DNA from: Longimicrobiales bacterium
GTDB taxonomy: Bacteria > Gemmatimonadota > Gemmatimonadetes > Longimicrobiales > Gaopeijiaceae
Length of the DNA: 64,000 nt
Direction of reading: 5' to 3'
Assembly: GCA_963422615.1 (NCBI GenBank)
Contig: OY730414.1
Coordinates: forward strand, 1,844,302 to 1,908,301
Under the pieces are notes generated by a model. It had not been told where the DNA came from. It did not search any database and saw nothing but the letters and a program-made list of their open reading frames with translations. The stretch's first letter is position 1; each line of letters opens with the position of its first letter. Of this stretch, positions 1,360-23,139 are shown piece by piece. A program made the translations under genes and the position numbers.

Positions 1360-1542
1360 TTACGCTTGTTCCACGTCGTAGATCCGTCTGCCGCGGTATA
1401 TGCCCGATGTAGGGCAGACGCGGTGACGCCGCTTTGGATCGCCGGTCTTTGAGCACGTCCCCAGGGTCACTTTCTTTGCCTTGTAGTGGGTGCGACGCTT
1501 GCGCTTCCGCTGCTTGGATACCCGTTTCTTCGGGACGGCCAT
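1360..1542 (-). CDS. rpmF: 50S ribosomal protein bL32
   Basis: MAVPKKRVSKQRKRKRRTH...HRVC...G.YRG; 60 aa; context. Confidence 0.97.
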   Translation of the reverse strand: MAVPKKRVSKQRKRKRRTHYKAKKVTLGTCSKTGDPKRRHRVCPTSGIYRGRRIYDVEQA

Positions 1543-1555
1543 TGTACGTGTTTTC

Positions 1556-19600: not shown

Positions 19601-20143
19601 AAGGCGACGGACAGCGACCCGCCTTCGGTCTTTGTACTTGCCGATCCCGGCCGCCTCTTCAAAGAGAAACCGGCGCTCGTCCGCCCGCTCGGACAAGATG
19701 GCGTCAATCATGCGAATCTCGATTACCGAGTAGGCGTTGGCGCCCAGCCCCGTATCCCGACACAGGTCTACAATGTCCCGAAGCCGACAGGCGGTGCGGT
19801 TGAGGCGGTAATCACTCCCCCCGTCCCGGTAGACGGTTCGGCCGATCTCAACTTCTTCGAAGGGAACGGGGAGCAGCCCGTCCTCGTTGGACACGACCAT
19901 GGAGACGGACCCCCGATTCACGGGTTTGCGGGAGACCGTCCCCTGGAAGATCACTTCTTCCATCCTCGCACCCCGTACGGCCGAGGGGCGCTGTTCTCCC
20001 AGGACCCAGCGGATCGCGTCGCCGATATTGGACTTTCCGCACCCGTTGGGACCCACGACCGCCGTAATCCCGTCGTGGAACTCCACACGCGTGGGATACG
20101 GAAAAGACTTGAAGCCGTGAACCTGAAGGGACCTCAGCTTCAT
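16643..20143 (-). CDS. smc: chromosome segregation protein SMC
   Basis: GFKSF, GPNGCGKSN, coiled coils, LSGGE, LDEVDAPLD; ATG 20143 overlaps rsfS stop. Confidence 0.97.
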   Translation of the reverse strand: MKLRSLQVHGFKSFPYPTRVEFHDGITAVVGPNGCGKSNIGDAIRWVLGEQRPSAVRGARMEEVIFQGTVSRKPVNRGSVSMVVSNEDGLLPVPFEEVEIGRTVYRDGGSDYRLNRTACRLRDIVDLCRDTGLGANAYSVIEIRMIDAILSERADERRFLFEEAAGIGKYKDRRRVAVRRLKTSEADLRRIEDVIAEVRTKVRSLARQKGKAQRYEKLQSRRIQVEVTLAKNGLEELDARLSRVDGELKSSQADGVGAKARLRVAEADLEQARLVQMEAERARVESASSLDAVGSELYRVEMEVAVAEERITHGKRRLAQISNEQAGLSKFRTRSDDELSSLRDHFAQRLADIEVVRSNLAKYKKSAAEIRKQREVAQGRVRELEVQCRTVTRRIARIEGDRESARIQAEEMGRRLTRLSRVAREGAGAQRDLRSKGDLFSDRRTVLAVGAQEASGALANSRRRLGLLRERLETVRVREKETEPRLTALEAEADALRRLTATGEGAEALAAAACKAFPIQVLGVLSDFVRVAGPPSARIVDAVLGRFGFALVLRSREDAGRIQQWYTETESAAGLVLLPRERAPESRGALPVGVSATGAGAPWVRALLGGLKIGNGLNPASRSSVSTDAEGEVRIDVRGAIHLLPRGAAGGRLERRERIKSLGFACEAARRKLEDVQAARTELEREYGECEEETRAASERLLEARDEARAAEAEATAHSDRQQRLDRHQEEISRQLEGTRAARDRADDREGAAKAALTRLRQEETALATRLERRREDQSASEDKWERAREAESETAIRSARLENEAERLRGRISDLEETVDRTGVRIAELDRETRDLEEELVRLRRIRRDGQAALQQLFSKRDDAKDVLEARKQALQIASEAVTSAERRVGETRSAERAAADRRHELELRRQDIRNQAMRIGERLEAEWNRPLEALIQETEIVKGPPEDLKTELTGIVGRLNRMGPVNMLAVEEHAEESARLEFLSRQREDLVRAGNDLRSAIRRINETATQLFMGSFEAIRENFRRTFRHLFDGGEANLRLADPDRPLESPVEIHAAPGGKRTQRIDLLSGGERALTALSLLFGIYLVKPSPFCILDEVDAPLDESNIGRFIRLLQGFKAQTQFVVITHNPRTIEAADWIYGVTMEEPGVSSIVGVRLEATGPVG

Positions 20144-20526
20144 TCGGAGAGTTTTCCGGAAAACGGATCGGCCGAGGAACCGCCTTTCTCGTTTCCGATG
20201 ACGACGAACGGAGCGTCTCCCCAAAGCTCTTCCAGGCGGTAGAAGCCCCTGACCGCCGGATGGAAGACATGGACGACCCAGTCGACATAATCCAGCAACA
20301 CCCACCGCCCCTGATCCAGGCCTTCCACGTGTTCGGGCCGATCTCCGTCTCGCTTCGCCGAGTCGATGATGTGTTCGGCGACCGCTCGAACCTGGACGTC
20401 CGAACGCCCGGTGGCGATCACGAAGAAGTCGGTGGCCGACGACAGGTTGCGAAGATCCATGACCGTGACGTCCTCGGCTTTTCTGTCCAGGGCGTACCGA
20501 ACGGCTCCCTGAACCTGGGCCGGCAT
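20140..20526 (-). CDS. rsfS: ribosome silencing factor RsfS
   Basis: DRKAEDV, DFFVIATG, WVLLDY.D.VVHVF, FYRLEELW; start approximate. Confidence 0.95.
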   Translation of the reverse strand: MPAQVQGAVRYALDRKAEDVTVMDLRNLSSATDFFVIATGRSDVQVRAVAEHIIDSAKRDGDRPEHVEGLDQGRWVLLDYVDWVVHVFHPAVRGFYRLEELWGDAPFVVIGNEKGGSSADPFSGKLSE

Positions 20527-20573
20527 ACCGAACGCTTCCCGCTCCCCATCCGCGGGTGTGGTTCGGGGACCCG

Positions 20574-21029
20574 TCAAATCGCCTCGGCCTTGACGACCAC
20601 CCTCACCTCGACCTCGACCTCCGCAGCCAGGCGAATGGGAATCCGGTACTCGCCCACCTCCTTGATCGGTTCGCCGAGAACAACGGACTTCCTGTCCAAC
20701 TCGAAGTCGATGCCCGATTCCTGGGCGCACTCCCCGATTTCGCGCCGGGTGACGGACCCGAACAGCCGCCCCTCTTCGTTGGCGAAGGCCGTGATGGTGA
20801 ATGTCTTGCCTTCCAGCTGGGACGCCCGTCGGTTGCCCTCCAGGTGCTCCTTGCGCAACCTCTCGCCCCGGTGGCGCTGCTCTTCCTCAATTCTCTGGAC
20901 ACTGGATGGAGAAGCCACGTAGGCCAGGCCTCGGGGAATCAGGTAGTTGCGGGCGTAGCCGGGCTTCACGTTCACTAGCCCACCCACGGGGCCCAGTTTG
21001 TCGACCGCTTCACGCAGAATCAGCTTCAT
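20574..21029 (-). CDS. rplI: 50S ribosomal protein bL9
   Basis: MKLIL..V..LG..G..VNVKPGYARNYLIP; LFGSVT. Confidence 0.97.
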   Translation of the reverse strand: MKLILREAVDKLGPVGGLVNVKPGYARNYLIPRGLAYVASPSSVQRIEEEQRHRGERLRKEHLEGNRRASQLEGKTFTITAFANEEGRLFGSVTRREIGECAQESGIDFELDRKSVVLGEPIKEVGEYRIPIRLAAEVEVEVRVVVKAEAI

Positions 21030-21054
21030 CGGTTCTTTCCGTCCAGCCTGGACC

Positions 21055-21705
21055 TCAGGCCAAGTGATCCTTGGTATAGGGGAGCAGAGCCAGGTATCTG
21101 GCCCGCTTGATTGCCGTGCCAAGTCGACGCTGAAAGCGGGCCGTGACTTTCGTGGTCCGCTTCGGCAGAATTTTCCCTTGCTCGGTGAGAAAGCGGGACA
21201 GCGTCGCGACGTCCTTGTAGTTCAACAGGACGACCGGAGGCCCCTCGAAGCGTCGGCGGCGACCCCGAACCCCCGAATACACCGGTGGGGCCGACACCAC
21301 GACCGGTTTCGCTTCCTCGTCTCGGTCCTGAGATTCCCGCACCTCGCCCCGGTCCGGGGTTTCCTCTCTTTCCGGATTCGAAGAAACCACCGGTCGTTCT
21401 GCAAAGACGGAGGCGCCCGATGTAGGCTGGCCATGGTTGAGCACGACCAGGTACCGCATGGTCTCCTCGTCAAGCTTGAGCAGTCGTTCGAATTCGGGAA
21501 GGGCCGAGGGCTCGGCGGAGACATGGGCAACGACAAAGTAGCCGATCTCCGCCTTGTTGACGGGGTACACAAGGCGGCGGACGCCCCAGTGGTCTACCGT
21601 GGTGACTTCGCCGCCAAGCCGAGCGTGGAAGGTGTCCAACTTGGCATTGACGGCGTCCAGGTCCAAGGCGGCGTCCAGGATGTAGACGATCTCGTATGCT
21701 GTCAT
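21055..21705 (-). CDS. rpsF-rpsR: fused 30S ribosomal proteins bS6-bS18 (216 aa)
   Basis: N-terminal YEIVYILD...[10 protein letters not shown]...MRYLVV (bS6) in frame with [23 protein letters not shown]...[13 protein letters not shown] (bS18); no stop between. Confidence 0.92.
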
Positions 21706-22053
21706 GCAGGCTTGTTCGCTCTCATTCGGGGGAAGCGACGGAATCCGCGTCTCATGTCGAATTCTTACCGATGACGAAGTATAGTACAGGCCAACTCCAA
21801 GGTGGAAGAACCCGTCTGACTCCGTCCCTTCCCGGCTCCACCCCGGGGCAGCCCGGACTCCGCCGGCGCCGAACCCGAAGGGTCCAGCTCCGTTTCCTGT
21901 CGCCGGCAAGAACGCTTTCTCAAACGTGCATCCGGTGGCCGGGGGCGAGAAGCGCCGCTGGAATGCCCGCCACAAAACAAGCATCTTGATTCTGGCGGAG
22001 AAAGCCTACCTTTTGTACCTTCGCCAACTACTGGAACGAAAGAGCGCACCTAC

Positions 22054-23139
22054 ATGGACTTTACATTCGTCGGCACTTCCGACAACTCGACCTTCGGCTG
22101 GTTTGCCCAAGGGCTACGTGAAGTGATGGAGTCGGAAGGCCATCGCTATACCCACGACGTCCACAACGCCAAATTGGTGTTGAACTTCTTCCCCATGGGA
22201 AAGCCACGCCCTGCCCGCCGCCGGGCTCAGGCCGTCTTCGTGTGTGCCGTGACGGAGTTTCCCGATCCGTTCACCGACCCGATCCCCCAGGGATATCCCA
22301 CCTTGGTTCGCGCCTTGGCCAATCTGGCGGTGGGTCTGATCCCGGGCCGCAACGGGTGTCCGGATGTTCACTTTGTCACCCTGGAACAAGGGCACTACAC
22401 GATATCGGGCAATCTGGACCGGAAAAGCTACTTCCAGCAGGTGTACAGGCGGATCCATCCCCTCGCCTCTTCTACCTTGGTTATCGAGAACTTTTTCGAA
22501 CCGGACCTTCCGGAGGCCCTGTGGAACGGGGACGAGCTCACGGAATCCATCTACCGGGCCGGCCAGAAACTGGCCGGTCTTGACCTTCTACCGGCTCCCT
22601 TTCCCATGGACCGGCTCCTGCCCGAACGGGACTTCCGCCACGTGAAGCGCCTGTTCGGAATCGGGGGTCTCTCGTACGGCAACGTGTCGGCTCGCTACGA
22701 CGGAGACTGGTTCTGGATGAGTGCCAGTGGTGTGGACAAATCCAACCTCCGGGAGATCGGCCATCACATCCTGATGGTGAAGGACTACGACCCGGTGCGG
22801 AACGGCATGCGGGTAGGGCATCCGCCCGGCGTGGCTCAGCCGCGTCGGGTTTCGGTGGATGCCATCGAACACTGGATGATCTACCGGGAACACCCGGAGG
22901 TCGGCGCGATCCTCCACGTTCACGGTTGGATGGACGGCATCGTGTCCACGGAGTTCAACTACCCCTGCGGGACCCGCGAACTGGGCCAGGCCGTTGCGGA
23001 TCTGGTGCGGGAAGCCGACGATCCCGGTCGTTGTGTTGTCGGACTCAAGAATCACGGCCTGACGATCACCGGCAAGGGCCTGGATGAGATCTTCGAGCGG
23101 ATCGAAGGGAACATTCTCCCTACGGTGCCGATGGACTAG
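22054..23139 (+). CDS. class II aldolase/adducin family protein
   Basis: SYGNVSAR, SASGVDK, SVDAIEH..IY, ILHVH, LKNHG; extra N-terminal domain. Confidence 0.85.
   Translation: MDFTFVGTSDNSTFGWFAQGLREVMESEGHRYTHDVHNAKLVLNFFPMGKPRPARRRAQAVFVCAVTEFPDPFTDPIPQGYPTLVRALANLAVGLIPGRNGCPDVHFVTLEQGHYTISGNLDRKSYFQQVYRRIHPLASSTLVIENFFEPDLPEALWNGDELTESIYRAGQKLAGLDLLPAPFPMDRLLPERDFRHVKRLFGIGGLSYGNVSARYDGDWFWMSASGVDKSNLREIGHHILMVKDYDPVRNGMRVGHPPGVAQPRRVSVDAIEHWMIYREHPEVGAILHVHGWMDGIVSTEFNYPCGTRELGQAVADLVREADDPGRCVVGLKNHGLTITGKGLDEIFERIEGNILPTVPMD

Follow-up and report, generated by a model that had tools for sequence, protein, structure and literature searches.

A single-origin fusion of ribosomal proteins bS6 and bS18 inherited through a clade of Gemmatimonadota

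Ribosomal proteins bS6 and bS18 are encoded as a single polypeptide in a Longimicrobiales bacterium (Gaopeijiaceae; assembly GCA_963422615.1) and in nearly all the relatives analysed from its family. This is a clade-wide fusion of single origin, which very probably works as a pre-assembled S6:S18 unit. The gene lies in a window of 64,000 nucleotides (contig OY730414.1, positions 1,844,302 to 1,908,301), the whole stretch of DNA that was analysed, and coordinates below refer to it. An earlier note, made from the letters of this DNA, had proposed a natural covalent S6-S18 fusion. The present analysis supports that proposal, as the fused gene is the sole source of both proteins and is inherited through the whole clade.

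The fused gene and its neighbourhood

The gene, its two domains and the genes downstream of it are as follows.
21055..21705, minus strand: fused rpsF-rpsR gene, bS6-linker-bS18, 216 aa
21442..21696, minus strand: bS6 domain, aa 4-88; Pfam PF01250 Ribosomal_S6, E 1.3e-20
21082..21225, minus strand: bS18 core, aa 161-208; Pfam PF01084 Ribosomal_S18, E 1.2e-20
20574..21029, minus strand: rplI (bL9), 25 nt downstream of the fused gene
20140..20529, minus strand: rsfS, ribosome silencing factor, the next gene downstream of rplI

The open reading frame 21705-21055 on the minus strand comprises 216 codons followed by TGA and has no internal stop. The bS6 half exceeds the curated cut-offs across nearly the whole model (PF01250, 73.8 bits against 27; TIGR00166, 61.4 against 42.9), as does the bS18 half for its own cut-offs (PF01084, 73.7 against 21; TIGR00165, 78.2 against 38.75). 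Ribosomal_S6 and Ribosomal_S18 each gave one Pfam match in the 2.57-Mb, 98% complete genome, both inside the fused frame, and tblastn gave the same picture; the fused gene is the genome's only source of bS6 and bS18. The open frame, the Pfam and NCBIfam matches and the sole copies thus bear out the earlier note's reading of both proteins in one 216-codon polypeptide. Its remark that the bS18 half carries no zinc cysteines was also correct: no Cys is present in that half, and Thr188 and Phe191 occupy ligand positions. The K-x-x-R pair of the bS18 AxKRAR helix is retained, and the pattern [AS][VI]KR[AS]R occurs in all 67 fused proteins. This Lys/Arg pair probably corresponds to K60/R63 of E. coli, the readers of the rRNA CC pair described in PMC4647458.

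In most relatives rpsR and rplI are separated by a further gene, some 950 nt long (as in L031:46-987), whose product is hydrophobic. This gene is missing here (21030-21054), in genera g54, g55, g49 and g57 and, as a separate case, in two genomes of family f3. On the other side, a divergent gene at 22054-23139 (plus strand) encodes 361 aa with a C-terminal class II aldolase/adducin domain that remains under all NCBIfam cut-offs, while its N-terminal 200 aa have no family match.

Distribution within the family and the phylum

Both halves lie in one open frame in 95 of the 101 family genomes, comprising 87 with a single stop-free match over both halves and eight with two matches confirmed in one frame. 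The other six consist of one fused-type gene split over two contigs, three unfused genomes and two uninformative ones. The fusion is not uniform across the family, since G073 and G080, two early-branching members, are unfused. A third apparently unfused member, G067, was set aside as a likely mis-binned contig: its locus (L033, G067:C9:1000-4000) has an rpsF-ssb-rpsR layout on a 4-kb contig of a 60% complete bin, its S18 is long-branched and falls outside the phylum's sequences, and the contig is probably contamination. The apparent split in G533 (L128, G533:C20) was likewise rejected: the gene is fused, but its S18 core carries a short deletion and a frameshift, which probably stem from misassembly.

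S18 matches were retrieved from 300 of 314 family genomes, and G080 and G073 alone matched a zinc-type S18 query strongly and end to end (among the 150 of 302 matches listed). No second S18 paralogue was found in G040 and four other rechecked genomes, and no clear reversion to the unfused state was seen in the family. Outside it, 20 loci from other families were all unfused, as were eight genomes of sister families f2 and f3 chosen because their S18 frames were long. In families f5 and f7 a single stop separates many genomes from the fused state; none is fused among the matches listed, and rare fusions may exist elsewhere in the phylum. The tallies for the phylum and the sister families take in a few genomes flagged as unpublished, on which no conclusion rests.

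Origin of the fusion

In an RpoB tree of 26 genomes, obtained from a quick search and with G080 represented by 175 aa only, the 15 fused genomes form one clade (SH-aLRT 98) with G073 and G080 outside. The fused clade is also monophyletic in the S18 tree (100/100). Because these two unfused genomes branch outside the fused clade, the fusion arose once, inside the family, and an origin in the family's ancestor is not supported. In both of them S6 is followed by TAG, three nucleotides and the ATG of S18, all in frame; this arrangement was found in none of 17 genomes examined in two sister families, eight of which had been picked for long S18 frames. Loss of the stop codon between adjacent rpsF and rpsR is the likeliest route to the fusion, as the state in G073 and G080 is a single substitution away from it, and we infer the event from that state. 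Bare read-through is not supported, for the N-terminus of S18 was rebuilt and its zinc site lost.

In an S18 tree of only 57 columns, for which the N-terminus was cut away and the two zinc columns on the C-terminal side were masked, the fused S18 is sister to the S18 of unfused G073 and G080 (96/51), inside the clade of families f1 and f2 (96/93) and away from the zinc-free S18 of gammaproteobacterial type. The unmasked tree places it, weakly (51/84), beside zinc-free S18 of Gemmatimonadales. Conversion of the native S18 gene in place, that is, a vertical origin of the S18 half, is therefore the likelier reading, supported on few columns.

The connector and the lost zinc site

Between the two domains, and within the S18 core, the following elements were distinguished.
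21403..21438, minus strand: bS6 C-terminal tail motif NEGEPTSGxS[IV]L (conserved, family consensus), aa 90-101
21289..21402, minus strand: variable spacer, aa 102-139, of low pLDDT and probably disordered
21235..21288, minus strand: fusion-specific segment PPx[FY]xGxxGRRRRx[ED]GP, aa 140-157, at fixed spacing before LNYKD
21133..21144, minus strand: former third and fourth zinc-ligand positions, Cys to Thr188 and His to Phe191

A related bS6 tail is present in unfused relatives, and the variable spacer descends from the ancestral acidic bS6 tail. Across the family the whole connector measures 58-200 aa. The linker had earlier been described as acidic, which is usually true of relatives and fails here, where 11 D/E stand against 11 K/R. 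The fusion-specific segment takes the place of the CxxC zinc knuckle of ancestral bS18; PP.[FY].G occurs in 64 of 67 fused proteins, and the segment was found only in fused genomes.

The CxxC...C..H ligands are kept in all 22 unfused Gemmatimonadota S18 of the tree set and in 8 of 8 further ones. They are absent from all 67 fused family proteins, 66 of which have no Cys after S6 and one of which has a Cys elsewhere; in the 21 fused proteins inspected, Thr, Ser or Ala stands at the third ligand position and Phe at the fourth. Loss of the ligands and gain of the PPxF-G-RRRR-GP segment fall on the same branch as the fusion. This combination, on one branch, of a fusion with the loss of four zinc ligands and the gain of a new segment is what is new here. 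Zinc-independent paralogues of ribosomal proteins have been described (PMC5912738). In having lost the CxxC...C..H ligands, the fused S18 resembles the zinc-free (C-) and not the zinc-binding (C+) forms of bS18, which are known for instance from the mycobacterial alternative ribosomal proteins. In contrast to a zinc-regulated second paralogue of mycobacterial type, it has no other copy beside it, is joined to S6 and seems to have been converted in place.

A family-wide purge of zinc was ruled out, because among five genomes examined fused G064 keeps zinc-type S14, L31, L33, L36 and L32; in at least one fused genome the loss is thus specific to S18. The present genome has only zinc-free uS14, bL31 and bL33, one match each (C1:2368690-2369640, C1:1396360-1396659), with bL31, bL33 and a bL28-like frame clustered, and its bL32 (window approximately 1370-1550, minus strand) keeps two of four Cys. 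Zinc-free uS14 adjoins zinc-free bL31 in G005; in G064, G073 and G352 the forms found are zinc-binding. Stand-alone zinc-free bS18 of Gemmatimonadales type (P0201, P0207 and P0186) represents a separate zinc loss without fusion in the same phylum. Two other correlates of the fusion were considered. Loss of bS21 was ruled out, the protein being present in 35 of 35 genomes. RimK, considered on the idea that a fused S6 has no free tail to glutamylate, exceeded the cut-off in one of the 35, fused or not.

Predicted structure

The S6:S18 pair is a textbook structure. An AlphaFold2 model of the fused chain, built on an alignment of 147 diverse fused proteins, reached pLDDT 84.5 overall and a pTM of 0.75. 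By region, pLDDT exceeds 90 in most of the two domains and is 87 in the S6 tail and 50-65 across aa 101-150. Because unrelated fusions were among the aligned proteins and the PDB contains the S6:S18 pair, the packing may be learnt by likeness. With 86 close relatives alone, the values were pLDDT 49 and pTM 0.43. Since pTM reaches 0.75 despite some 50 poorly defined residues, the model from diverse proteins suggests that the two domains hold a fixed mutual arrangement. A strand bridge is predicted at aa 100-101 in the bS6 tail. The predicted bS6 half has the ferredoxin-like beta-alpha-beta-beta-alpha-beta fold and superposes on solved bS6 with an rmsd of 1.2-2.2 A for the top Foldseek matches (target TM up to 0.89). 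No PDB chain with both domains occurred among the matches listed.

With the canonical bS6:bS18 heterodimer (30S platform of E. coli and T. thermophilus; PDB 1G1X) the fused protein shares two complete, single-copy domains, the rpsF-rpsR-rplI context and the Lys/Arg pair of S18. The canonical pair consists of two gene products, whereas here there is one chain, with neither a free S6 C-terminus nor a free S18 N-terminus. According to passages of PMC3854524, S18 probably needs S6 or rRNA in order to fold.

The rpsF leader

S6 and S18 jointly repress rpsF by way of a leader in which a CCR is unpaired and the SD is paired, as set out in passages of PMC4647458 and PMC3854524. The corresponding region of the window is this.
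21706..21783, minus strand: 5' leader upstream of the fused gene, without a match to the family's S6:S18-type leader model

The S6:S18-type leader pattern was matched upstream of 65 of 66 fused loci and, among loci scored as unfused, of 21 of 24. The consensus of relatives folds into three helices and leaves a CCR unpaired; its closing stem contains the SD, and it lies immediately upstream of rpsF. Two-sided changes were seen in 7 of 14 pairs, a figure reached in none of 500 shuffles and inflated by kinship, on 42 rows chosen for a compact element after one further row was dropped. The model built from these relatives recovered 17 of 18 held-out fused loci (E<=0.0062) and 8 of 9 outgroup loci. 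As the leader is kept before 65 of the 66, the regulatory target survived the fusion in the clade.

The sole exception among the 66 is the present genome, where no pattern match was obtained and the model score did not exceed 3.2 bits anywhere in 21650-22100. This leader can be folded into a hairpin whose loop contains CCG, and autoregulation may have been lost or rewired in this genome. A TATACT hexamer is visible by eye at 21783-21778; the promoter scan called no minus-strand promoter. No Rfam 15 leader match was obtained in the window region or at 12 loci.

The leaders of relatives share with the S6S18CBM/rpsF_leader RNA, as described in passages of Matelska 2013 (PMC3854524) and Babina 2015 (PMC4647458), a CCR bulge flanked by stems, the SD inside the closing stem and a position immediately before rpsF. 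They differ in having an extra short hairpin. They also occur although rpsR adjoins rpsF, a layout that Matelska et al. correlated, in passages of the same paper, with absence of the motif.

S6-S18 fusions in other bacteria

A profile search of 1.84 billion cluster representatives gave 150 listed matches, of which 71 reach across S6 into S18. Five are of this family's type and 66 are others, with eight of the 66 set aside by eye as likely assembly errors, so that at least 58 other S6-S18 fusion clusters exist among the matches listed. This was the search for proteins with both domains that the earlier note had proposed, and it reveals the fusion in several bacterial groups beyond this family. 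The same note had ranked the fusion as the window's top novelty candidate, but with dozens of fusion clusters in other phyla it is not unique to one lineage. Named matches, from follow-up searches, include Gammaproteobacteria/Legionellales, alphaproteobacterial fusions, Ca. Gracilibacteria/Patescibacteria and Ca. Hydrogenosomobacter. A large group of fusions of 191-200 aa was also noticed, in which P0452 and P0426 are named as Gracilibacteria or Patescibacteria.

All share the domain order seen here, and the S18 half is nearly always zinc-free: ligands are absent in 57 of the 58 clusters (63-64 of 66 with those set aside), and one fusion, P0291, keeps them all. They are 20-45% identical among themselves. 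They differ from this family in their unrelated, shorter connectors (median 42 aa against 78 here, between the same landmarks) and have no PPxF-G-RRRR-GP segment. By their sequences, they represent origins separate from that of the family studied here.

Databases annotate such proteins silently. The UniRef label of the Ca. Hydrogenosomobacter protein is 'Multifunctional fusion protein', a JGI label of another reads 'ribosomal protein S18/ribosomal protein S6', and the ESM Atlas has S6+S18 clusters in Gemmatimonadota and Pseudomonadota. A full-text search, with a scope outside subscription journals, found no published description. The words 'fusion' and 'fused' do not occur in PMC3353972, PMC7782861 or PMC9297842, nor 'fusion' in the Gaopeijia description PMC11651109; the supplementary files searched for two of these papers, a selection of their files, do not mention it either. 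Passages of PMC9297842 list bS6 among the proteins that are large in CPR bacteria, with no mention there of a fusion, and the same is true of the bS6/bS18 passages of the review PMC10931766. The S6-S18 fusion is thus silently annotated and recurrent across bacteria. What this family adds is a surviving precursor state, a rebuilt zinc-free N-terminus and a retained leader.

How the fused protein may work and why it may have arisen

We propose that one gene yields one uncleaved chain, whose bS6 and bS18 domains would pair intramolecularly as in the normal heterodimer. The chain would then bind the S15-prepared platform of 16S rRNA ready-made and be incorporated into the ribosome, with the variable spacer looping out. 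The fusion occurred once inside the family, most likely through loss of the in-frame stop between adjacent rpsF and rpsR. On the same branch, a zinc-binding bS18, probably the native one, lost its four ligands, and its N-terminus was rebuilt into the PPxF-G-RRRR-GP segment. Repression of the mRNA by its own product, acting on the retained leader, probably persists in most of the clade.

Some S6-S18 read-throughs in databases do look erroneous (the eight of 66 judged by eye), and the first question is whether the gene is an assembly or annotation artefact. Conservation of the fusion across the family, in 95 of 101 genomes, refutes this reading, to which we give practically no credence; the conserved fusion-specific sequence at the junction and independent sequencing runs agree with the fused frame. 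One contig from run X3, possibly the source sample of this DNA, spans 20500-22000 with no differences. Runs from two other studies cover the stretch piecewise with three substitutions and no indels, both substitutions within the gene being synonymous. On this evidence the open frame is not a sequencing error. It is also improbable, though less so, that S6 and S18 reach ribosomes as separate proteins through cleavage of a polyprotein or through an internal S18 start. The long linker, predicted to be disordered, is what such a route might use, although its spacer has no conserved cleavage motif. As for a second start, the best candidate codon, at position -8, is ATG (Met) in 23 of 67 fused loci and GTG in 5, but an SD-like motif precedes only one of these 28, and the remaining loci have His, Ile, Val, Leu, Phe, Thr or Arg there (TTC in the present genome). 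Moreover, a protein begun at this codon would lack the conserved PPxF-RRRR segment, which is encoded upstream of it. Stand-alone 'MEGP...' S18 calls of 56-64 aa are numerous in databases, a few of them on long contigs, and those of 64 aa would fit a separate product; we read these calls as probable gene-caller fragments. No conserved internal start was found.

The fusion may have arisen with no benefit. Adjacent, co-translated genes for a heterodimer could fuse by one point mutation, a long tolerant tail would make the fusion harmless, and loss of the S18 start would make it irreversible. We give this nearly neutral ratchet somewhat less than an even chance. It is favoured by the loose length of the connector (16-70 aa in other fusions, besides the wide range within the family), by in-frame adjacency before the fusion, by a leader unchanged across the transition and by recurrence in many lineages; the strong conservation of the new 22-residue segment, the f5 and f7 genomes that stand one stop from fusion with none fused among the matches listed, and the lack of any clear reversion in the family argue against it. 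A further reading extends the pre-assembled unit and is no alternative to it: linkage to bS6, together with the Pro/Phe/Arg segment, would take over the folding role of the zinc knuckle, so that fusion and zinc loss would be causally coupled and recur together. The contrast between the 67 fused family proteins and their 22 and 8 unfused relatives, the zinc-free state of 57 of 58 other clusters and the independence of the S18 loss from any family-wide purge (G064) are consistent with such a substitution. Yet unfused zinc-free S18 exists in Gemmatimonadales and Gammaproteobacteria, and many of the other fusions come from proteobacterial groups, the gamma-type ones among them, in which S18 is zinc-free anyway. 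Moreover, fusion clusters are not independent events, the two changes share one branch here and so give no order, and P0291 retains all ligands. The association between fusion and zinc loss across bacteria is striking but confounded, and we hold the substitution of a tether for zinc to be possible, with the odds against it.

Implications

The fusion opens no new class of system. It indicates that the 30S platform can accommodate a covalent connection of widely differing lengths from the C-terminus of bS6 to the N-terminus of bS18, possibly near the 3' end of 16S rRNA, which bS6, bS18 and bS21 hold according to passages of PMC7797042. An annotation pipeline that assigns a fused gene to just one of the two proteins, S18 or S6, may count the other marker as absent. 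The fused proteins offer natural single-chain templates for asking whether heterodimer formation limits platform assembly or autoregulation, and they bear on ribosome simplification. Their coupling with loss of the S18 zinc site provides a testable idea on why zinc-free ribosomal proteins arise. More tentatively, S6-S18 fusion may be a recurrent convergent solution in which a tether takes over from the zinc knuckle and a two-protein AND-gate repressor becomes a single chain, a broader view that we regard as rather doubtful. If it were true, this family would be its cleanest case, with an unfused, zinc-binding, in-frame precursor in two sister genera and the leader kept.
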